DNA of 64,000 nucleotides from Acidimicrobiia bacterium UBA5794 (GTDB lineage: Bacteria > Actinomycetota > Acidimicrobiia > Spongiisociales > UBA5794), in assembly GCA_002418265.1 (NCBI GenBank), contig DIDS01000009.1:58764-122763 (forward strand). The letters are read 5' to 3'. Both the position numbers and the translations under genes were made by a program. The notes below the pieces were generated by a model. The model saw only the letters and a program-made list of their open reading frames with translations, was not told the origin of the DNA and did no database searches. How positions within the stretch are numbered: the first letter of the stretch is position 1; the number at the start of each line of letters is the position of its first letter. Below are positions 253-63,574 of the stretch, one piece after another.

Positions 253-1896
253 TCACCGATCCACCGAATTGGTGGCGACTGCAATCGCATTGAGAAACAC
301 TTCACCGTACGTCGCGAGCTTGACTGCGCCAACACCCGAAATTGCAAGAAATTCAGATGCCGATGTTGGACGGGTTTCAGCCATCTCTCGAAGAGTGGCG
401 TCATTGAAGACCTGGTATGCCGGCGCATTCTTCGCGTCGGCAATTCGTTTCCGGAGCCCGCGAAGTTCTTCGAACAGATCAACAGCAGCGGGATCAAGAT
501 CGACTGTTGGTGCAACAGTGCGCCGAGCGCTTGGTGCTGTCACGGAACGGAGGTCGATACCGAAATCGGTGCAGTTGTCACAGCTCGACTCGCACTCGTC
601 CATCCGTTCGCCAAAGTACCACGCAAGGCCCATGTGGCGGCATCGATGCCCTTCGGCGAACCGGTACATCAGGCGGACGTGCTGCTGCTGGGACCGCTTG
701 TCGTCGCTTCCCGACACCATCCGTTCGAGTTGGATCACATCGGCCCATGAGTAGAACAGGTAGCAGTCCGCGTCGAGTCCGTCGCGGCCCGCGCGTCCGA
801 TCTCCTGGTAGTAGCCCTCGATCGATTTGGGCATGTCTCGATGGATGACGAACCGAACGTTTGATTTGTCGATACCCATTCCGAAGGCGATCGTTGCACA
901 CACGACGTCGATGTCGTCTCGGATGAATTCGTCCTGGATCCGAGTCCTGTCATCGGATTCCATACCGGCGTGATACGAACCAGCCTTGATCCCGAGAGAG
1001 CGGAGGTATGCAGCCGTCGAGTCGGCGCTCTTGCGCGACAGTGTGTAGATGATCCCCGACTCGCCTTTGCGATCAAGACAGATTTTTCCGATCGAGTCCT
1101 TCACCTTGATTCGCTCGGCTCCGTCACCGCCCTTCTTGAAAACGTGAATCCTCAGGTTGGGACGAAAGAACGACGTGTTCACCATGCGTGGATCCTCAAG
1201 GTGAAGCTGTTCGACGATGTCTCGTTGGACCCGTTCGGTCGCGGTCGCCGTCAGCGCAAGAACCGGCGTCCTCCAACGTGTCTTGATGTCAGCAAACTGA
1301 CGGTACGCAGGTCGGAAATCGTGACCCCATTGTGAGATGCAATGTGCCTCATCGACAGCAACGAGACGGAGATCGGTCTGATCCAACACCGGTCCGAGTG
1401 AGGCGACAAGGCCCTCGGGAGCTGCATATACGAGTTGGTATTCGCCTCGCTTGAGCCGCTCGATGCGATCACTCCGCACATCAAGGTCGATGCTGGAGTT
1501 GAGGAAGGTTGCAGCAATACCGACCTCATGTGCAGCGTCAACCTGGTCCTTCATGAGTGCGATGAGTGGGGAGACCACCAGCGTCGTGCCACCGATCAGC
1601 CTCGATGCGAGTTGGTAGGTCAGCGACTTGCCCGATCCCGTTGGCATGACTGCCAGGCAGTCCTTCGACGCCAGTGCTGCTTCGATCACATCACGTTGGC
1701 CGGCGCGAAATTCGTCGTATCCAAACGTGTCCTTGAGCTCTCGCAAGAGCGTCGCGTCGTCCACCACGACGGGATCACGGTCCGGAATCAGCCTCGCTTG
1801 TTGCCCAACGGGTGATGTCTGTGCCTGAGCGTCATCGCCAATCTCAGTTGCAAGACCGGCCCAATAGGCATCATCGAATTCGTCGCCAGAAGTCAT
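253..1896 (-). CDS. recQ: ATP-dependent DNA helicase RecQ
   Basis: 547 aa. Carries a DEAH-box helicase core ([33 protein letters not shown]), a C-terminal RQC zinc module ([12 protein letters not shown]...CESSCDNC) and an HRDC-like tail. Confidence 0.9.
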
Positions 1897-1949: not shown

Positions 1950-2495
1950 TCAGTGATCGTCAATCGAGATCTGGAGTTCGCCGTACTCAAATTGGGCCTT
2001 GAACTCGATCTCATCGTCACCGTGGTCGTTCTGCTTGAACTTGACCTTGACCTCTTCGGGACCGCTGTGTTCGATCTCCACCTTCCACCCGGGGTTCGGC
2101 ACGGCACCCGAAAACGTCACGGATTGGTCACTGATCGCGATCCGTACCGTGCCGCCGTCGGTGCTGTAGGTCTTGGTGGAAGTCGTCGGCTGGGTCGTCA
2201 CAGGCGAGGGGGGAGGTACCGGAGCCATGGTCGATCCGATCGTCTCAGAAATCGGTGGTATGACGGTCTCCGAGGATGTTGCCGGCACGGTTGTGGAAAC
2301 CGTCGACGACGCCGTTGCTGATTGGATCGTTGTTGATACCGTGTCGACGGCAAGGGCGGCAGCGGTCGGCGAACCAAGAGCCGTTGGCTTCTCCGTGACC
2401 TGTGAACGCACACTACTGACAGCGGCGCCGGCGATCACGACCGAGACGATGGTCGCACCGATCCAGGCGATCGAAAGTCCAAGTCCTCGTCTCAT
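1950..2495 (-). CDS. secreted Ser/Thr/Pro-rich hypothetical protein
   Basis: An internal start ([23 protein letters not shown]) gives a signal/anchor sequence. It is followed by a long S/T/P-rich linker and a roughly 80-aa C-terminal domain. No recognisable family. Confidence 0.45.
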
Positions 2496-2606
2496 GCCCA
2501 CAGTCTCCCCCGAGATCACCACTATTGAGCTAACTGCTGGTTAACGGTGCACCATGTGTTGGGTAACCAAGAGTCCGGAGGCAATCTGGCTCGGTAACGT
2601 GGTGTC

Positions 2607-3290
2607 ATGGCAGCGATCCTGATCATCGAGGACGAGCAACGAATCCGCGAATCTCTTGCGAAACGTCTCGCCGAGCGTGGACACGACGTCGAGACCGTCA
2701 CCAATGCCATGGACGGGATCCAACGCGGTATCTCCGGCGATTTTGACGTGGTGATCCTCGACCTGGGACTTCCTGATCTTGATGGCACCGAAGCGCTTCG
2801 AATGATCCGGGCCGTCAGCGACGTGCCCGTCGTTGTCGCAACCGCCCGAGACGACGAAACGGACATCATCGCGGTTCTTGATGCCGGGGCAGACGACTAT
2901 GTTGTCAAGCCCTACTCCGCTGACCATTTGGCAGCGAGGATCCGTGCCGTCATGCGACGCACGTCCGATGCACCGGAAGACCACGTTGTTGTGGTCGGTG
3001 GTCTCCGACTGGATCGGGACAGCCATGAAGTGACACTCGACGGTGTCCCCCTCGAATTGACCGCCCGAGCCTTCGACCTGCTTGCGTACCTGGCGTCGAA
3101 CCCCAACAAGTTGGTGAGCAAGCGCGAACTGATGGCGGAGGTCTGGCATCAACCGTATGGGGGTGCGGACAAGACTGTCGATGTGCACGTCTCCTGGCTG
3201 CGCAAGGCACTCGGCGAAACCGCAACCGAGCCGGTCTACCTCCACACAAAACGCGGTGTCGGTGTCCGACTCGTGGACCCGACGCGGTGA
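2607..3290 (+). CDS. OmpR-family response regulator
   Basis: Receiver domain (IIEDE...VVILDLGLPDLDG, KPY) plus a winged-helix DNA-binding C-terminus (LTARAFDLLAYLASNPNKLVSKRELMAEVW). Overlaps the downstream kinase by 4 bp. Confidence 0.9.
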   Translation: MAAILIIEDEQRIRESLAKRLAERGHDVETVTNAMDGIQRGISGDFDVVILDLGLPDLDGTEALRMIRAVSDVPVVVATARDDETDIIAVLDAGADDYVVKPYSADHLAARIRAVMRRTSDAPEDHVVVVGGLRLDRDSHEVTLDGVPLELTARAFDLLAYLASNPNKLVSKRELMAEVWHQPYGGADKTVDVHVSWLRKALGETATEPVYLHTKRGVGVRLVDPTR

Positions 3291-4591
3291 GACGACGCCT
3301 GATCCTTCTCTCGATTGCCGTCACCGGCATGGTCGTTCTTGCGTTCCTCGTCCCCCTGTTCATCCTTGTCTCGGATCTTGCACGCGACTCGGCCATCTCG
3401 GCTGGTGAGCGCGACGCAGAAAGTCTGGCGCGAGCACTCTCCGTCCTGACCGTAAATGAAGATCTGACGACGGCCCTCGACGTCATCGGTGAGGACCGCA
3501 TTTCCGATGTGAACGGATCCGTCATCCTGCCAAACGGCGACGTCGTCGGAGTACCGCTGTCGGAGGACAACGACGCAGACGAGCAGGACTTGACCCTGGC
3601 CGAGGAAGGAAACTCATTCGTCGCTTCCGTACCGGGAGGTGCGGCCGTCTATGTACCAGTTGTCACGTCGGCCGGCACGGCTGTCGTGCGGGTTCTTGTG
3701 ACCGATGAAAAAATCCATGCCGGCGTAGCTCGGAGTTGGGTGATCCTCGGAACACTCGGGCTCGGGCTTGTCGCTCTTGCGGCCTGGGTGGCGGATCGGC
3801 TCGGACGGTCGATGGTCATCCCTGTCAAGGAGCTGTCAGAGACAGCAGAGCGTCTCGGGGAGGGCGACCTGACCGCCCGTGTCAGTCCAGGGGGACCTCC
3901 AGAGATCGAAGAGGTTGGCCTTGAATTCAATCGTCTCGCGGATCAGATCGGGCGACTGCTCCAAGAAGAACGAGAAACAGCTGCCGATCTGGCACATCGC
4001 CTTCGAACACCGCTCACCGCGGCGCGCCTCACCGTGGATGGTCTCGAGGATTCCTCATACAAGGACCGCCTCGTCTCTGATCTCGACGAGCTCCAGCGAA
4101 CAACGGACTACATCATCCGTGAGGCGAGACGACCGGTCCGCCAGGAAGAGCATGCCTGGTGCGACCTCGGCACGGTTGTTGCAGACCGCGTCCGGTTCTG
4201 GGAACCGCTCGCAACCGAGCAGGAACGCGACATCTCGGTCACCGTCACCGACCTGCCGACACCGGTGTCGGCACCAGCAGTTGATATTGAAACGGCGATC
4301 GATGCACTCATCGAGAACGCGATCTCACACACGCAGCCTGGTATTCCGTTTGGAATCACCGTTTCACGCGTCGGGTCATTCGCACGCTTCGTAATCGAAG
4401 ATGGTGGGCCGGGGCTGCCTGCAGAATTTGAGCTCAAGCGTGGAATGTCTCACGGTGACTCGACCGGACTCGGACTCGACATCGTCAGAAGAACCGTCGA
4501 GTCCGTCGAAGGTGCTCTCTCCATCGGGCGTTCTGAGTTGCTCGGCGGAGTGAGGATCCAACTCGACCTGCCGCTGTCAACGCCGTCCTAA
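3287..4591 (+). CDS. sensor histidine kinase (HAMP/HisKA/HATPase)
   Basis: N-terminal TM segment, H-box HRLRTPLTAARL, and G-boxes GLGLDIVRRTVE in the C-terminus. Translationally coupled to the regulator. Confidence 0.85.
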   Translation: MRRRLILLSIAVTGMVVLAFLVPLFILVSDLARDSAISAGERDAESLARALSVLTVNEDLTTALDVIGEDRISDVNGSVILPNGDVVGVPLSEDNDADEQDLTLAEEGNSFVASVPGGAAVYVPVVTSAGTAVVRVLVTDEKIHAGVARSWVILGTLGLGLVALAAWVADRLGRSMVIPVKELSETAERLGEGDLTARVSPGGPPEIEEVGLEFNRLADQIGRLLQEERETAADLAHRLRTPLTAARLTVDGLEDSSYKDRLVSDLDELQRTTDYIIREARRPVRQEEHAWCDLGTVVADRVRFWEPLATEQERDISVTVTDLPTPVSAPAVDIETAIDALIENAISHTQPGIPFGITVSRVGSFARFVIEDGGPGLPAEFELKRGMSHGDSTGLGLDIVRRTVESVEGALSIGRSELLGGVRIQLDLPLSTPS

Positions 4592-4690
4592 AGACTTTTT
4601 CCGTTCGTTTGCGGTCGATTAGCGCAGCGTTATCTCGCATTGACGCATGGTGTACCAGGAATCAGTACGAGTCGATCAAAGGAGATACAC

Positions 4691-5290
4691 GTGGCCACAA
4701 AGCGAAGCCCCAAGAAGATCACAGGATCACTGATCGCCGGAGCACTCCTTGTGCCGCTGACCGCCGTCGCCGCTGCGGCGCTGGTCGGGTCCATCACCAA
4801 CGCACAGGGTGCCGAGGCAGCGTCCCCGACACCGGTCACCATGACTGTCGAACGGCCAGCCACGACACCATCAGCAACACCGGAATCGGACACGGAAGCC
4901 ACCATCGCCGCCTGCACATCGGGCGTCGAGACACTCCTTGCTGCTGAACGCGACGGGACAATCGATCCACTCCAGACTGCCGCACTCGATGCTCTGCGCC
5001 AGATCTGTGAGCAAGAAGGAATGGCAATCGACGGTCCCCCGCTTCCCGAGCCCGTGGTCAAGGTCGTGACCGTGAACCAGGCCGCGCCGGCCGGTGGGCA
5101 GGGCGAGAATCTGGCATGTTCCGACGACGACGATGCCTATGACGACGACGATGCATACGACGACGACGATGCATACGACGACGAGTGCGATGACGTCGAT
5201 GATCACCATGACGACGACCATGACCATGGTGATCACCATGACGATGATCACCATGATGACGGCGGCCACGATGACGAGGACGACGACTGA
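4691..5290 (+). CDS. secreted protein with acidic His/Asp-rich C-terminal tail (putative metal-binding)
   Basis: GTG at 4691 is preceded by aaaggag. Has a signal peptide (KKITGSLIAGALLVPLTAVAAAALVG) and four Cys. The tail reads DDDDAYDDDDAYDDDDAYDDECDDVDDHHDDDHDHGDHHDDDHHDDGGHDDEDDD. The ORF track places the start at 4640. Confidence 0.55.
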   Translation: MATKRSPKKITGSLIAGALLVPLTAVAAAALVGSITNAQGAEAASPTPVTMTVERPATTPSATPESDTEATIAACTSGVETLLAAERDGTIDPLQTAALDALRQICEQEGMAIDGPPLPEPVVKVVTVNQAAPAGGQGENLACSDDDDAYDDDDAYDDDDAYDDECDDVDDHHDDDHDHGDHHDDDHHDDGGHDDEDDD

Positions 5291-5640
5291 TGCGATGGCT
5301 CAGTGCCCTCGCAGGACTCCTCGCCGCAGTATCCGCCATCGTGGTGCTGCAGGTGATCAACACCGCACCGATCGATACGGGAGCAGACACCCAACCACTC
5401 CCACGTCCCACGGCGGTCTTCGCACCAGCAACGGTCGAGTCCAGTCCAGCCGGTCTGGTCCCCGACCTTCCCGGTGTGCCACCCGAGGTGGCTGCCGTCC
5501 TCGGTGAGTCCGGCTATTCGGTATTCGCTCAACCGGCCGAGGTTGACACACTATTGACGCCCGCAGTGGTCCAGACACTGGTGAGCCATGGGGCGATCCT
5601 GGTGGTTCCCGAACCAGACACCACAGATGGGAGCCGATGA
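5290..5640 (+). CDS. small membrane/exported Pro-rich hypothetical protein
   Basis: ATGA overlap with the upstream gene. N-terminal hydrophobic segment LSALAGLLAAVSAIVVL. No family recognised. Confidence 0.4.
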   Translation: MRWLSALAGLLAAVSAIVVLQVINTAPIDTGADTQPLPRPTAVFAPATVESSPAGLVPDLPGVPPEVAAVLGESGYSVFAQPAEVDTLLTPAVVQTLVSHGAILVVPEPDTTDGSR

Positions 5641-5975
5641 TGGCGAAGCGTATGACAGCGAGCCGAGTCGCCGGCATCACAGCATGGTCAGCAGCTGCCG
5701 TGGCATGGGGCACCGCAGCCGTCGCCTTCGTCACACCGGGATCGTCAACGGGAGCACCGGCGGTGGTGATGGAACCCCCGCCACCGCTTGCTCCGATCCA
5801 GAGCTCCGTTACGGCACCGCAGGCTTCCCTGCCCGCGATGCCAGAGACCGGACTCGTCGTTGTTCGCTATACCCCTGTCGATCGTCCCGAGGCAGAGGTC
5901 GTCGTTGAGCGCCGGATCGTTGCGGCGACGACACCAAGTGCTCGTGCTCCACGCGTGAAGAGCTCCGGATCGTGA
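5637..5975 (+). CDS. small exported hypothetical protein
   Basis: ATGA overlap. Signal-like N-terminus (RVAGITAWSAAAVAWGTAAVAFVTPG). Pro/Ala-rich. Confidence 0.4.
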   Translation: MMAKRMTASRVAGITAWSAAAVAWGTAAVAFVTPGSSTGAPAVVMEPPPPLAPIQSSVTAPQASLPAMPETGLVVVRYTPVDRPEAEVVVERRIVAATTPSARAPRVKSSGS

Positions 5976-6814
5976 TCGTCGACAAGCTCTCTGCGATGGG
6001 GACCACGTTCGAGACGCACACCGCATCCGGTGGGGAAGCCGTTGCGGTCCGACACCGCATCGCACGGCTCGAAGAACGGTTCAGCCGCTTCCTGCCCACC
6101 AGTGAGCTGACGCACATCAACACATCGGAAGGAGGCTGGCACGCCGTTTCCAAGCCGATGAGCCGTGTGCTTGAGGCAGCAGCAATGGTCAAGGATCGAA
6201 CGGATGGACTCGTTGATGTCGGTGTTGGGGCAGCGGTCGTGGCATGGGGATATTCAAAATCGTTCGACGATCTGTCGTCCCGTATCCAACGCAGCAGCCA
6301 CGGGTCACAAACTGGGTGGAAGTTGCGCGATGGAGCCGTGCGGTTGGAGGTTGGAACCAAGCTTGATCTCGGTGGCATCGCAAAGGGCTGGACATGCGAC
6401 GAGATCGTCGAATCGGGTATGGCACGCATGGTGTCCGCCGGCGGCGACCTCCGATCATCCGATCCCGACGTTGTCGTCGAAGTCGTGGACCACCTCAATG
6501 CCCCGGTTGCAGATATCCACGTCGGCCGGGGTGCCTTGGCGACGAGCTCCAGAATGAGACGTACGTGGATGACCGATGCAGGTCCAGCGAATCATCTGAT
6601 CGATCCACGGACGATGCGACCGGTGACATCGCCGATCACCCAAGCAACGGTGGTGGCCGAAACAGCTGTGGAGGCCGAGGCTGGCGCCAAGGCTGTCCTC
6701 CTTCATGGTGTGGACGGTCTGGCATGGGCAGATCAGCAGCCCTGGATCCGCCAGGCGGTTGCCGTCTGGCATGACGGATCGGTCTTTGCCACCAAGGATC
6801 GGCGTGCGGCATGA
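5972..6814 (+). CDS. apbE: FAD:protein FMN transferase (ApbE family)
   Basis: ApbE signature LDLGGIAKGW plus conserved N- and C-terminal blocks. GTG start overlaps the previous stop. Confidence 0.8.
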   Translation: MIVDKLSAMGTTFETHTASGGEAVAVRHRIARLEERFSRFLPTSELTHINTSEGGWHAVSKPMSRVLEAAAMVKDRTDGLVDVGVGAAVVAWGYSKSFDDLSSRIQRSSHGSQTGWKLRDGAVRLEVGTKLDLGGIAKGWTCDEIVESGMARMVSAGGDLRSSDPDVVVEVVDHLNAPVADIHVGRGALATSSRMRRTWMTDAGPANHLIDPRTMRPVTSPITQATVVAETAVEAEAGAKAVLLHGVDGLAWADQQPWIRQAVAVWHDGSVFATKDRRAA

Positions 6815-7416
6815 ACGTCACGTGGATCATCGTTCGAGGATCGGGGATCGCTGCCTTCGTGTTGCTGAGTGCGTCGATGGTCTGGGGATTGTGGATCTCG
6901 ACGAAGACCTTTGGTCGGGCAGTGAACGCAAAAGGACTCCAGTGGCTCCATGAGTCCCTCGGTCTTGCGGCAGTCGCCGCCACCGTCATTCACATGGTGT
7001 CGCTGTCCATGGACGAATTCATCGATTTTGGCTGGTGGGACATCATGATCCCCGGTGTCGCAACGTGGAAGCCGTTGGCGGTGTCCCTCGGTGTTGTCTC
7101 GTTCTGGTCAATACTCCTTGTCTCAGCAAGCTTTTATGCGAAGCGGTGGATCAGCCAGAGCGCATGGAGATCGATTCACTATCTGTCATTCGGGGCGTTC
7201 CTCGCCGCCCTGGCGCACGGGGTGATGGCGGGCACAGACTCGGGAACACCATGGATGACAGCCCTGTATGTGGGAGCGGGAGTGGCCGTCGCCGCCCTCA
7301 CTGCCATCCGTCTGGTGGCATCGTCGCGAAGTCAGGCGTCAGAAGTCACACGACCGACGACCGATGACCGACGAGCGATGACCGATGACCGAAAGCAGAA
7401 CTCGGAAGTCGGGTAG
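6811..7416 (+). CDS. ferric-reductase-like transmembrane heme b protein (YedZ/MsrQ-like FRD domain)
   Basis: About 200 aa with 6 TM segments. Two bis-His pairs with 12-13-residue spacing (HESLGLAAVAATVIH and HYLSFGAFLAALAH) are typical of the FRD family. The last 28 aa are encoded by heptamer repeats. Confidence 0.65.
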   Translation: MNVTWIIVRGSGIAAFVLLSASMVWGLWISTKTFGRAVNAKGLQWLHESLGLAAVAATVIHMVSLSMDEFIDFGWWDIMIPGVATWKPLAVSLGVVSFWSILLVSASFYAKRWISQSAWRSIHYLSFGAFLAALAHGVMAGTDSGTPWMTALYVGAGVAVAALTAIRLVASSRSQASEVTRPTTDDRRAMTDDRKQNSEVG

Positions 7417-7492: not shown

Positions 7493-7831
7493 ATGTCGGA
7501 AAGAGATGCAGTGAACATGCCCGACGGCAAGGACCTGCTGCGTGGAATGGGTTGGGAATCGCTTCCATTTTCGTGCCTTGGTCTCACTCGTCGGACGGGC
7601 GAGACCAAGGGCAACAGCATCTGGTCGTGGATAATCCTCATTCCGTGGTCCTCGAACGGGAAACCGTGGATCGACGGGACAGAGATCCTTCCTGCCACGA
7701 CCAAGACCGAGGCTGAAGAGCGCCAACAAATCATCGCCAAGATGCGGGGACTCCTCGACGATCGTTACGGGGAGACCGTTGCACACCGTGCGGTAGACGA
7801 CTTCATCGCCGAGATCCTCGGCGAAACATGA
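7493..7831 (+). CDS. hypothetical protein
   Basis: ATG at 7493 follows aagggg. About 112 aa with no recognisable motif. Translationally coupled to the downstream lipoprotein. Confidence 0.35.
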   Translation: MSERDAVNMPDGKDLLRGMGWESLPFSCLGLTRRTGETKGNSIWSWIILIPWSSNGKPWIDGTEILPATTKTEAEERQQIIAKMRGLLDDRYGETVAHRAVDDFIAEILGET

Positions 7832-8262
7832 TCCGTACCTTTGGCGTCCTCATCGTTTTGGCCCTGGCAACCAGCGTTGCCTCTTGCTCGAGCGTCCTCG
7901 AATTGAGCGTCGGTGACTGCTTCCAGGATTGGGAAGGCGCAACACAACTCGCCACGCAGCAGGTGAAAGGTGTCGAGACGGTGAGCTGCGACGTCCCGCA
8001 CGACAACGAGGTCTACGCCCTGGTTGAGATGACGAAAGAATCGTTCCCCGGCGCCGCTGACGTTGAAACGGAGGCATACGAGTCCTGTCTTGAACACTTT
8101 GACGCGTTCGTCGGAACACCGTATGCCGATTCACGGCTCGACTTTGGCGCCTTGTTCCCCACCGCAGAGTCGTGGGAGACGGGTGATCGAACGATCATCT
8201 GCTTCGTCTACGACGTCGAATTCCTTCGGCTGACCGGCTCCATGGAGGGTTCGGGCATCTAG
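7828..8262 (+). CDS. putative lipoprotein
   Basis: Signal peptide plus lipobox (LALATSVASC). About 125-aa mature domain with 4 Cys. Confidence 0.5.
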   Translation: MIRTFGVLIVLALATSVASCSSVLELSVGDCFQDWEGATQLATQQVKGVETVSCDVPHDNEVYALVEMTKESFPGAADVETEAYESCLEHFDAFVGTPYADSRLDFGALFPTAESWETGDRTIICFVYDVEFLRLTGSMEGSGI

Positions 8263-63482: not shown

Positions 63483-63574
63483 CGGAGGCGGACGGGAATC
63501 GAACCCGCCAGGGAACTTTCGCCCCCTCGTCGGTTTTGAAGACCGCGACGTCCACCAGGCACGCAGTCGCCTCC
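63483..63574 (-). tRNA. selC: candidate tRNA-Sec (selC), anticodon UCA
   Basis: The reverse complement reads GGAGGCG-AC-...GGTCTTCAAAACCG...GGCGGGTTCGATTCCCGTCCGCCTCC-G. It has a 7-bp acceptor stem, a T-loop GGTTCGATTCC, a 7-nt anticodon loop CUUCAAA identical to E. coli tRNA-Sec, a long variable arm and is 92 nt in total. CCA is not encoded. Hand-folded only. Confidence 0.55.

Follow-up and report, generated by a model that had tools for sequence, protein, structure and literature searches.

What does a flavin transferase modify when no recognizable flavin carrier is encoded beside it? The question is raised by a seven-gene locus in a stretch of 64,000 nucleotides from Acidimicrobiia bacterium UBA5794 (assembly GCA_002418265.1, contig DIDS01000009.1, positions 58,764 to 122,763; hereafter the window), in which a gene of the ApbE family, whose members attach flavin mononucleotide (FMN) to proteins, lies between the genes of three small proteins (P3, P4 and P5) and that of a membrane protein with a ferric reductase domain (FRD), preceded by a response regulator (RR) and a histidine kinase (HK). 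Comparing this locus with its relatives, we found that the conserved unit is the five genes P3-P4-P5-ApbE-FRD, not including the two-component system, and that P5 has an invariant extreme C-terminus. We put at roughly even chances the reading that the locus is a variant of the MsrQ-like, flavinylation-associated transmembrane electron-transfer systems, in which a flavin-bearing C-terminal tail of P5 replaces the FMN-binding domain and serves the outer haem of FRD. The narrower claim, that the P5 tail is the substrate of ApbE, seems to us equally poised between right and wrong.

The genes and the proposed attachment site, with positions counted in the window, are as follows:

2607 to 3290, + strand: RR, an OmpR/PhoB-family response regulator (Response_reg, 2.9e-26; Trans_reg_C, 3.9e-23)
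3287 to 4591, + strand: HK, a sensor histidine kinase with two transmembrane (TM) segments, an extracytoplasmic loop and HAMP, HisKA and HATPase_c domains (Pfam)
4691 to 5290, + strand: P3, exported, with a helical hairpin that holds two Cys (..AC..AALDALRxIC..) and a polyacidic tail, rich in His too in this case, that ends in DDD
5290 to 5640, + strand: P4, exported or anchored by its N-terminus, with no family and, at the C-terminal end, a conserved domain of about 55 amino acids (aa)
5640 to 5975, + strand: P5, the tail protein, in which a basic N-terminus is followed by a TM helix rich in Ala, Trp and Gly, a linker, the conserved core GLVVVRYTP and the C-terminal tail (from the alignment)
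5961 to 5972, + strand: the terminal S-S-G-S codons of P5, the proposed flavin attachment site (from the translation)
5972 to 6814, + strand: an ApbE-family enzyme, a putative FMN transferase to proteins from flavin adenine dinucleotide (FAD), of a divergent clade without signal peptide (Pfam, 8.9e-41)
6811 to 7416, + strand: FRD, a predicted minimal FRD/MsrQ-like di-haem b membrane protein (AlphaFold2 fold and His pattern)

The conserved five-gene unit and its tail protein

All seven open reading frames (ORFs) lie on the + strand at the positions given by an earlier reading made from the sequence alone, and the same seven genes are found in the public gene calls of the metagenome-assembled genome (MAG) GCA_027494075.1 (contig JAOSJN010000001.1), an Acidimicrobiia-type actinobacterium. 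The gene content and domain calls of that reading are borne out by Pfam for RR, HK and ApbE and by a fold model for FRD. Its picture of seven genes chained by 4-bp overlaps is correct in part: overlaps occur at four or five of the six junctions, some of only 1 bp, but HK and P3 are separated by a 99-nt gap (4592-4690) without any overlap. The RR/HK junction is a 4-bp GTGA; P3 and P4 overlap by 1 bp (TGATG); P4 and P5 overlap by the 4 bp ATGA, or by 1 bp with the start at 5640; the P5 stop (5973-5975) overlaps the GTG start of ApbE (5972-5974) in GTGA; and ApbE and FRD share ATGA. The start of P3 is GTG 4691, preceded by a ribosome-binding site, AAAGGAG, and not 4640.

Species-representative genomes were scanned with an ApbE alignment, and the ORFs of the recovered loci (numbered with the prefix L) were then searched with hidden Markov models. 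The scan yielded 43 Acidimicrobiia-type loci, with ApbE 45 to 84% identical, and 37 Firmicute loci, mostly from Paenibacillus, with ApbE 30 to 37% identical; a third, high-GC lineage, including one MAG labelled Candidatus Limnocylindrales, was found via distant FRD homologues. The order P3-P4-P5-ApbE-FRD is kept in all 43 Acidimicrobiia-type loci wherever the contig is long enough, while the flanks of five of them are unrelated (ABC-2, CorA, Haem_bd, KdpC, phosphoenolpyruvate carboxylase and others), so the five genes form a self-contained module. Thus, where the sequence-only reading had named missing conservation or synteny as the sign of its own failure, the small proteins turned out to be strongly conserved and syntenic with ApbE. 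The two-component system, which it had placed at the head of the operon, drops out of the unit, since it adjoins the module only in some lineages and a probably promoter-bearing gap lies between.

A profile search of 1.84 billion representative proteins returned a P5 family of 119 clusters at 50% identity, whose members share the basic N-terminus, the Ala/Trp/Gly-rich TM helix, a variable linker, the GLVVVRYTP core and the invariant extreme C-terminus. The terminus [S/T]-x-x-S is present in 112 of the 119 representatives, the remaining 7 being truncated or otherwise atypical entries. Counting back from the last residue in the 109 full-length representatives, position 0 is always Ser, followed by the stop codon; position -1 is Gly in 97%; position -2 is variable; position -3 is Ser (97%) or Thr (3%); and position -7 is Pro in 65%. 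In the related loci the last four residues read S-[S/G/N]-G-S, and the few apparent exceptions are explained by probable assembly indels: L027, L037, L048 and L056, from MFD and related long-read MAGs, have merged or frameshifted ORFs across P3-P4-P5-ApbE-FRD (in L048, for example, one ORF of 1992 nt). The P5 of the window itself ends R-V-K-S-S-G-S, that is, S-x-G-S without the Asp of the canonical D-x-x-[S/T]-G-A-[S/T]. The sequence-only reading was therefore right that no clean [S/T]GA[S/T] motif is present, but it overlooked the invariant S-x-G-S terminus.

In 50 of 53 ORF calls the stop codon of P5 overlaps the start of ApbE, and we considered whether the tail is a by-product of the overlapping start codon and ribosome-binding site of ApbE. 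This is ruled out by codon diversity and by the eight Firmicute loci that retain the terminal Ser with a gap of 9 to 55 nt to ApbE and TAA or TAG stops. Both Ser codon families (AGY and TCN) and all four Gly codons are in use in the tail, and since codon choice varies this freely, the constraint acts on the peptide and not on the ribosome-binding site.

The same plan recurs in the two other lineages. All 37 Firmicute loci encode, directly upstream of ApbE, a small anchored protein that ends in Ser and consists of a Lys/Arg-rich N-terminus with a TM helix, a low-complexity linker and this C-terminal Ser. In most Paenibacillus loci the protein ends ...SRTGAS-stop, an exact match to the four-residue core [S/T]GA[S/T]; other Firmicute endings are TGRS, SQAS, TRRS, TRSS, TRGS and SRHS. 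The third lineage has an acid-tailed protein, an anchored protein ending TT[RK]QSG[x](P), ApbE and FRD. The small proteins of these two lineages have no Pfam or NCBIfam match, so they contain no known carrier domain, and profile-profile comparison (hhalign) found no homology between P5 and the Firmicute tail proteins (probability 0.3%). ApbE and FRD, unlike the tail proteins, are clearly homologous across phyla, which suggests that evolution kept only the anchor and a hydroxyl-bearing free C-terminus. A tail-protein gene lies directly upstream of apbE in 43 + 37 + 5 loci, usually with a stop/start overlap, and the tails of all three lineages have just one feature in common, a Ser or Thr that stands two to three residues before the C-terminus.

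The AlphaFold2 model of P5 shows helix 7-29 alone, with no globular fold (predicted local distance difference test, pLDDT, 61), and because nothing except the TM helix is modelled, P5 is predicted to be incapable of binding flavin by itself. In 99% of the family, positive charges are concentrated N-terminal to the helix (4.4 vs 0.7) and no second hydrophobic segment follows, so an N-in/C-out topology is predicted. The helix itself is unusually conserved (W16, W23, G24).

Among the small proteins, only P5 is a credible flavinylation substrate, judged from its sequence. Neither P3, P4 nor P5 has a Pfam or NCBIfam match, in agreement with the earlier statement that no known flavinylation-target domain is encoded here (the known ones being FMN_bind, NqrB/RnfD, DUF2271, DUF3570, Flavodoxin_4 and FMN_red). 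That reading had proposed both small exported proteins as candidate substrates; P5, with its invariant S-x-G-S, stands, but P4 does not. P4 was rejected because the motif-like SGYS of the window is not conserved in 39 orthologues, whose C-terminal domain of about 55 residues is conserved but includes no conserved Ser or Thr; P3 likewise has no conserved Ser/Thr site. Three further explanations for P5 were considered and set aside. Its MPETG is not a sortase LPxTG signal, since the Thr is not conserved; 'hitch-hiking' of ApbE on a Tat substrate was rejected because neither P5 nor the Firmicute proteins contain a twin-arginine motif; and a programmed -1 frameshift fusing P5 to ApbE into an anchored enzyme is unlikely because there is no slippery heptamer, though the ApbE frame is indeed -1. 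Overlaps of the ATGA and GTGA kind are commonplace.

Haem protein, putative transferase and rival readings

FRD scores 21.4 bits against the Pfam family Ferric_reduct (PF01794), below the cut-off of 28, and a direct PDB sequence search found no matches, so that a fold search was needed. The Paenibacillus orthologue passes at 29.4 bits, and many close homologues carry precomputed PF01794 annotations. The AlphaFold2 model, based on 60 homologues, reached a pLDDT of 93.9; its top Foldseek matches were STEAP2 (7tai), the NOX5 TM region (5o0t) and SpNOX (8qt6), with probabilities of about 1.0, weak E-values (0.03) and TM-scores of 0.54 to 0.57 for STEAP2 and NOX5. H47/H61 and H123/H136, spaced by 14 and 13 residues, vary little or not at all among the 60 homologues and in both clades. 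Since model, structural matches and conserved His agree, the assignment stands despite the sub-threshold Pfam score, and with it the earlier description of an FRD-domain bis-haem membrane protein: FRD is, on the model, a minimal di-haem b protein of five TM helices and a C-terminal helix, with no NAD(P)H/dehydrogenase or FMN-binding domain. Its predicted outer loops contain the conserved residues F73, W75, P81, G141 and D143, which could form a docking site for a tethered flavin near the outer haem, the orientation of the loops being read from charge distribution. FRD offers no conserved Ser/Thr as a possible flavinylation site.

ApbE is a clear member of its family (PF02424, 8.9e-41, 140.6 bits against a cut-off of 25.6; phmmer matches to ApbE/Ftp-family proteins in the PDB, with 13 distinct chain sequences). 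S192 and H208 align with the catalytic Ser/His pair (Vc S241/H257; Tp S240/H256) and R197 with Tp R245, and across 82 sequences from the two clades each of the three is conserved to at least 93%. K138 is also retained, and F40, within an invariant RFSRF motif, corresponds by sequence alignment to the isoalloxazine-stacking Y60 of E. coli (Vc Y69).

These features point to the following mechanism. FRD would bind two b-haems, with H47/H123 at the inner and H61/H136 at the outer position, as its fold and His pattern suggest, and electrons would cross the membrane through it; the donor would probably be menaquinol, because FRD has no NAD(P)H domain. The flavin carrier would be P5, membrane-anchored and foldless, standing in for an FMN-binding domain protein. 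The ApbE encoded by the overlapping downstream gene would attach flavin to a Ser in the free tail of P5 (...P-x-P-x-S-x-G-S-COOH), and the tethered FMN would dock on the conserved outer loops of FRD beside the outer haem. P3, with its putatively disulfide-stapled hairpin and polyacidic tail, and P4 would serve as extracytoplasmic accessory subunits, which might conceivably trap a cation, Fe(III) or Cu(II) for instance, as the acceptor.

Besides the strict synteny, the selected tail and its counterparts in other lineages, several points favour the flavin tail: MsrQ-like clusters normally hold an FMN-binding protein and none is found here, nor does a D..[ST]GA[ST] motif occur in any long ORF of the 64-kb window; ApbE modifies C-terminal tags, and natural flavinylated C-terminal extensions exist; the ApbE of the module keeps F40, Lys138, the Ser192-His208 pair and Arg197 of the characterised enzymes; and FRD has conserved outer-loop residues that could dock the flavin.

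Several observations weigh against it. The window tail is SSGS and not [S/T]GA[S/T], with no Asp at -6, and the third-lineage tail does not end in Ser at all; the acceptor residue is therefore uncertain. The Mg-ligand positions of ApbE are E236 and K240 instead of Asp and Thr, invariantly so in the Acidimicrobiia and Firmicute clades, and the third lineage shows the same E..K pattern. The first-sphere Mg2+ ligands at these positions are D284 and T288 in Ftp_Tp, where the alanine mutants are inactive (PMC4436053), and D301/T305 in FmnB (PMC8906456). In addition, the Ftp_Tp E244 position is Arg196, read only in the window protein. The active site thus appears more cationic and, with its Mg ligands replaced by Glu/Lys, may work without metal site 1 or perform different chemistry. 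Moreover, ApbE is leaderless in all three lineages, yet the P5 tail is predicted to lie outside the cell. No upstream extension of the ORF is possible, position 1 of the Pfam model already aligns at residue 9, and the RefSeq call of the Paenibacillus orthologue is leaderless as well, as is the third-lineage enzyme. With a leaderless enzyme and a C-out tail, the two could meet only before export. Nothing except the acidic tail of P3 points to a metal acceptor. The check for a canonical substrate was confined to the 64-kb window.

A meeting of ApbE with P5 before export is plausible, since P5 is short, unfolded and translationally coupled to the enzyme. We know of no precedent for pre-export flavinylation. 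The fully specified version, in which the leaderless ApbE with its remodelled Glu/Lys metal site loads FMN onto the P5 tail in the cytoplasm and the flavin-bearing tail is then threaded out via Sec to serve a minimal di-haem FRD cytochrome as its extracytoplasmic cofactor, a 'flavin on a leash', must be called rather unlikely as a whole. An extracytoplasmic flavinylation module, as the sequence-only reading had it, is suggested by the pairing of ApbE with an MsrQ-like FRD, but without a signal peptide on ApbE it cannot simply be assumed.

The rival that survives best, though we think it somewhat improbable, is that P5 and its analogues carry no flavin and act as structural or assembly subunits of the FRD complex, for instance an intramembrane partner helix, with [S/T]xxS as a docking or sorting motif, while the cytoplasmic ApbE flavinylates another cytosolic protein encoded elsewhere or no protein of the module. 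The absence of a signal peptide from ApbE, whereas P3, P4 and P5 look exported, fits this; cytosolic ApbEs for cytosolic enzymes exist, as with the fumarate reductase of Klebsiella (PMC12052999); the conservation of W16, W23 and G24 suggests specific helix packing; and the tail motif is non-canonical and differs between lineages. What such a subunit leaves unexplained is the hydroxyl-bearing tail, at most three residues from the free C-terminus, in three mutually unrecognisable proteins that are always encoded directly upstream of ApbE, as well as the exact TGAS motif in one lineage. An ApbE-FRD pair without a flavin carrier would also be unprecedented among the described MsrQ-like clusters (PMC8238504), and FRD offers no conserved Ser/Thr as an alternative site.

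Less probable still is an ApbE-like enzyme with a different activity: a FAD-binding or FAD-hydrolysing flavin-trafficking protein that supplies FRD, or an enzyme that transfers some other ADP-linked group to the tail Ser, so that the module is redox-related but P5 bears no FMN phosphoester. The invariant E236/K240 in both clades and Arg196 in the window protein speak for it, given that Ftp_Tp T288A and D284A lose both activities (PMC4436053) and that single residues switch ApbE-family enzymes between pyrophosphatase and transferase (PMC4767422). On the other hand, the aromatic F40 is typical of the transferase class, whereas the pyrophosphatase bears Asn; the enzyme also retains the Ser-His pair and Arg197; and the superfamily of the partner haem protein uses flavin as an electron entry or exit cofactor. 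Finally, the notion that P3 to P5 are spurious or lineage-specific functionless fillers and that the real unit is the two-component system with ApbE and FRD, which the lack of database families and the partly low-complexity sequences of P5 and P3 might suggest, has almost no probability left: it is already refuted by the comparative data, with order kept in 43 loci down to about 45% ApbE identity, 119 clusters in the P5 family, invariant Cys in P3, an invariant P5 tail and a conserved P4 domain, the non-conserved part being the two-component system itself.

Accessory proteins, regulation and neighbouring genes

P3 has a helical hairpin framed by two invariant Cys some 30 residues from each other; a Pro-rich segment and the acidic tail follow. 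The tails of its orthologues contain 11 to 38 Asp/Glu in the last 45 residues and nearly always terminate in Asp, with 0 to 11 His. The earlier label of a His-Asp-rich protein thus suits only the subclade of the window, to which the His-richness is confined; what is universal in the orthologues is the acidic tail. P4 is specific to the Acidimicrobiia-type module and absent from the other two lineages; a search for its homologues returned only 3 sequences. In the third lineage, the first gene (L090, L093, L095) encodes a 92-aa exported protein with a (I/V)QVDT(I/V)YV strand and an Asp-terminated acidic tail (..GDND, ..SGND, ..GGDD), which resembles P3 in miniature and suggests that the high-GC modules inherited an acid-tailed partner from their ancestor. 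Next to a cytochrome of ferric-reductase type, a polyanionic tail might capture a cationic acceptor, for example Fe(III) or Cu(II), an idea that we hold to be tentative and on the doubtful side. The role in metal reduction or uptake proposed from the sequence therefore survives as a hint from the polyacidic tail, but the His are not conserved, and no metal transporter or other consistent neighbour was found in the flanks of five loci.

RR and HK are of OmpR/PhoB type, RR with receiver and winged-helix domains and the kinase with HAMP, HisKA and HATPase_c (Pfam), and neither has an NCBIfam equivalog match at its cut-off. Among the Acidimicrobiia-type loci, RR-HK adjoins the module only in the subclade of the window (the window, L007, L010, L011, L012, L015 and L049). 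In the third lineage a divergently transcribed RR-HK pair stands beside the module in every locus with enough flank (L090, L093-L095), and eight Firmicute loci have an adjacent RR or RR-HK. Because the adjacency recurs in the third lineage and these Firmicute loci, the link between two-component system and module is not accidental; a link of the module to a two-component system, as first proposed and here of OmpR type, thus recurs in three distant lineages. Two candidate RR sites were found in the window:

2530 to 2545, + strand: candidate RR box 1 (CTAACTGCTGGTTAAC, an 11-bp direct repeat), between the RR gene and a divergent 190-aa gene
4619 to 4634, + strand: candidate RR box 2 (TTAGCGCAGCGTTATC), in the 99-nt HK-P3 gap

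The motif of box 1 is retained upstream of RR in L007, L011 and L049. The HK-P3 gap contains a non-coding block, centred on box 2, that is conserved in seven loci whose ApbE proteins are just 53 to 84% identical. The pattern YTANC-N6-TTAWC, itself built from boxes 1 and 2, matches only these two sites in the 64 kb, against 0.11 expected. OmpR-family regulators usually bind to 11-bp direct repeats, and because the conserved boxes have this form, we infer autoregulation of RR and control of the operon. In the subclade of the window, footprinting thus suggests that the upstream OmpR-type system probably drives both the operon and itself via TTAnC-N6-TTAnC direct repeats, and box 2 marks the probable promoter region of the five-gene operon.

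The divergent gene next to box 1 (window 1950-2522, - strand) encodes a 190-aa protein with an N-terminal TM segment, a Ser/Thr/Pro-rich linker and no family. It may belong to the same regulon, since a similar 180-aa gene occupies the same position in L007 and L002. In Firmicutes, L051, L058 and L073 have 11-bp direct repeats, TTTCAT-N5-TTTCAG, about 35 to 60 nt upstream of the tail-protein gene, and L074-type loci of the P. amylolyticus group have a conserved promoter block, GCTTTAGCC-N4-CTTAACCGTTCATTCA. Both resemble RR sites of OmpR type, also in loci that lack an adjacent two-component system. No riboswitch, for FMN or otherwise, was found by Rfam near the module in the window and seven related loci, and Fur/PerR boxes upstream of the Paenibacillus genes were dismissed as just weak matches with 2 or 3 mismatches.

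Upstream of the locus lies a RecQ-family helicase gene (DEAD, Helicase_C, RecQ_Zn_bind and HRDC domains; window 253-1896, - strand), a neighbourhood retained in L007 and, less closely, in L009. Downstream of FRD, a gene for a 112-aa protein of no known family (7493-7831, + strand) overlaps by 4 bp with that of a lipoprotein-like protein with a Septum_form domain (7828-8262, + strand). This pair is outside the module, since in L007 an MFS gene and a 946-aa gene are inserted between it and the module. In L009 (9266-10630, equal to 6886-8250 in L014), FRD is called as one 454-aa product with an Exo_endo_phos (endonuclease/exonuclease/phosphatase) domain, which may reflect a genuine fusion or else an error of the long-read assembly, namely a missed stop or a frameshift. 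Elsewhere in the window, a tRNA-Sec gene (63484-63574, - strand; Rfam, 69.6 bits, E 8.7e-12) implies selenoprotein synthesis in the source Acidimicrobiia MAG.

Relation to known flavinylation systems

MsrQ-like systems (PMC8238504; mSystems 2024, PMC11334425) share with this locus an apbE gene beside a PF01794-type di-haem membrane protein. They are frequent in Actinobacteria and are proposed to pass electrons across the membrane to an extracytosolic flavin, in some cases in connection with iron reduction. The flavinylated partner in their clusters is normally a protein with an FMN-binding domain (Meheust et al. 2021, eLife, PMC8238504), whereas here we find a domain-less anchored carrier candidate with a C-terminal tail, a leaderless ApbE and two changed Mg-ligand residues. 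Operationally, an MsrQ-like system is a PF01794 gene with an ApbE or FMN-binding protein that bears a signal peptide, a combination that the locus does not have; it is thus a variant and not a member, the resemblance being functional and architectural. The MsrQ-like survey dropped ApbE and FMN-bind genes without a signal peptide (PMC8238504), and this filter probably explains why the class went undescribed. Full-text literature searches found no report of such tail proteins.

ApbE attaches FMN to Ser or Thr of unstructured tags of 7 to 12 residues at protein C-termini, the basis of the engineered Flavin-tag (Tong, Fraaije and co-workers; PMC9400968, PMC12052999), and P5 would share with it the sufficiency of a short unstructured C-terminal peptide. 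The Flavin-tag is synthetic (GVDGLSGATLTS, or a 7-aa core, DxxSGAT) and used with Vibrio ApbE, whereas the tails here are natural and end at, or at most three residues from, a hydroxyl residue: SxGS in this lineage, TGAS in Paenibacillus and QSG.. in the third lineage. In those Lactococcus FMN_red proteins that are associated with ApbE (PMC11334425), the flavinylation site is likewise on an unstructured C-terminal extension and the flavin pocket is formed elsewhere; their tail, however, belongs to a folded flavoprotein with its own pocket, while P5 is foldless and the pocket would presumably come from FRD. Klebsiella pneumoniae provides a leaderless, cytoplasmic ApbE encoded beside its substrate, a soluble fumarate reductase (PMC12052999), but that substrate is cytosolic, with a canonical FMN_bind domain and motif, and all candidate partners here are membrane-bound or exported. 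With MsrPQ and the NOX/STEAP/FRE proteins, FRD shares the fold and the 14/13-spaced His pairs for two b-haems. In NOX and STEAP, the flavin that partners the haem chain is bound on the cytoplasmic side via large domains, and MsrQ passes its electrons to the molybdoenzyme MsrP; FRD here has no MsrP neighbour, five TM helices and no extra domain.

Flavinylation by ApbE is the basis of Nqr, Rnf, NosR and extracellular electron transfer, as well as of many extracytosolic redox systems that are still uncharacterised. To our knowledge, all accepted ApbE substrates so far are folded domains, or folded flavoproteins with an extension. If P5 and its Paenibacillus analogues are flavinylated, the range of substrates would extend to domain-less proteins of about 100 aa that conserve just an anchor and a four-residue C-terminus, and a class of systems would come to light that the signal-peptide requirement for ApbE has removed from surveys. 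It would also raise the question of where flavinylation occurs relative to export. For protein labelling, such tails would offer natural, very short C-terminal flavin-tags and possibly a Mg-independent transferase. Paenibacillus strains are cultivable and genetically tractable, so the hypothesis is directly testable. If true, the 'flavin on a leash' would be a natural flavin-tag, placing a covalent flavin outside the cell without the export of FAD or ApbE, by a plan that seems to have arisen or been kept in Acidimicrobiia, Paenibacillaceae and a third high-GC lineage with unrelated carrier sequences.

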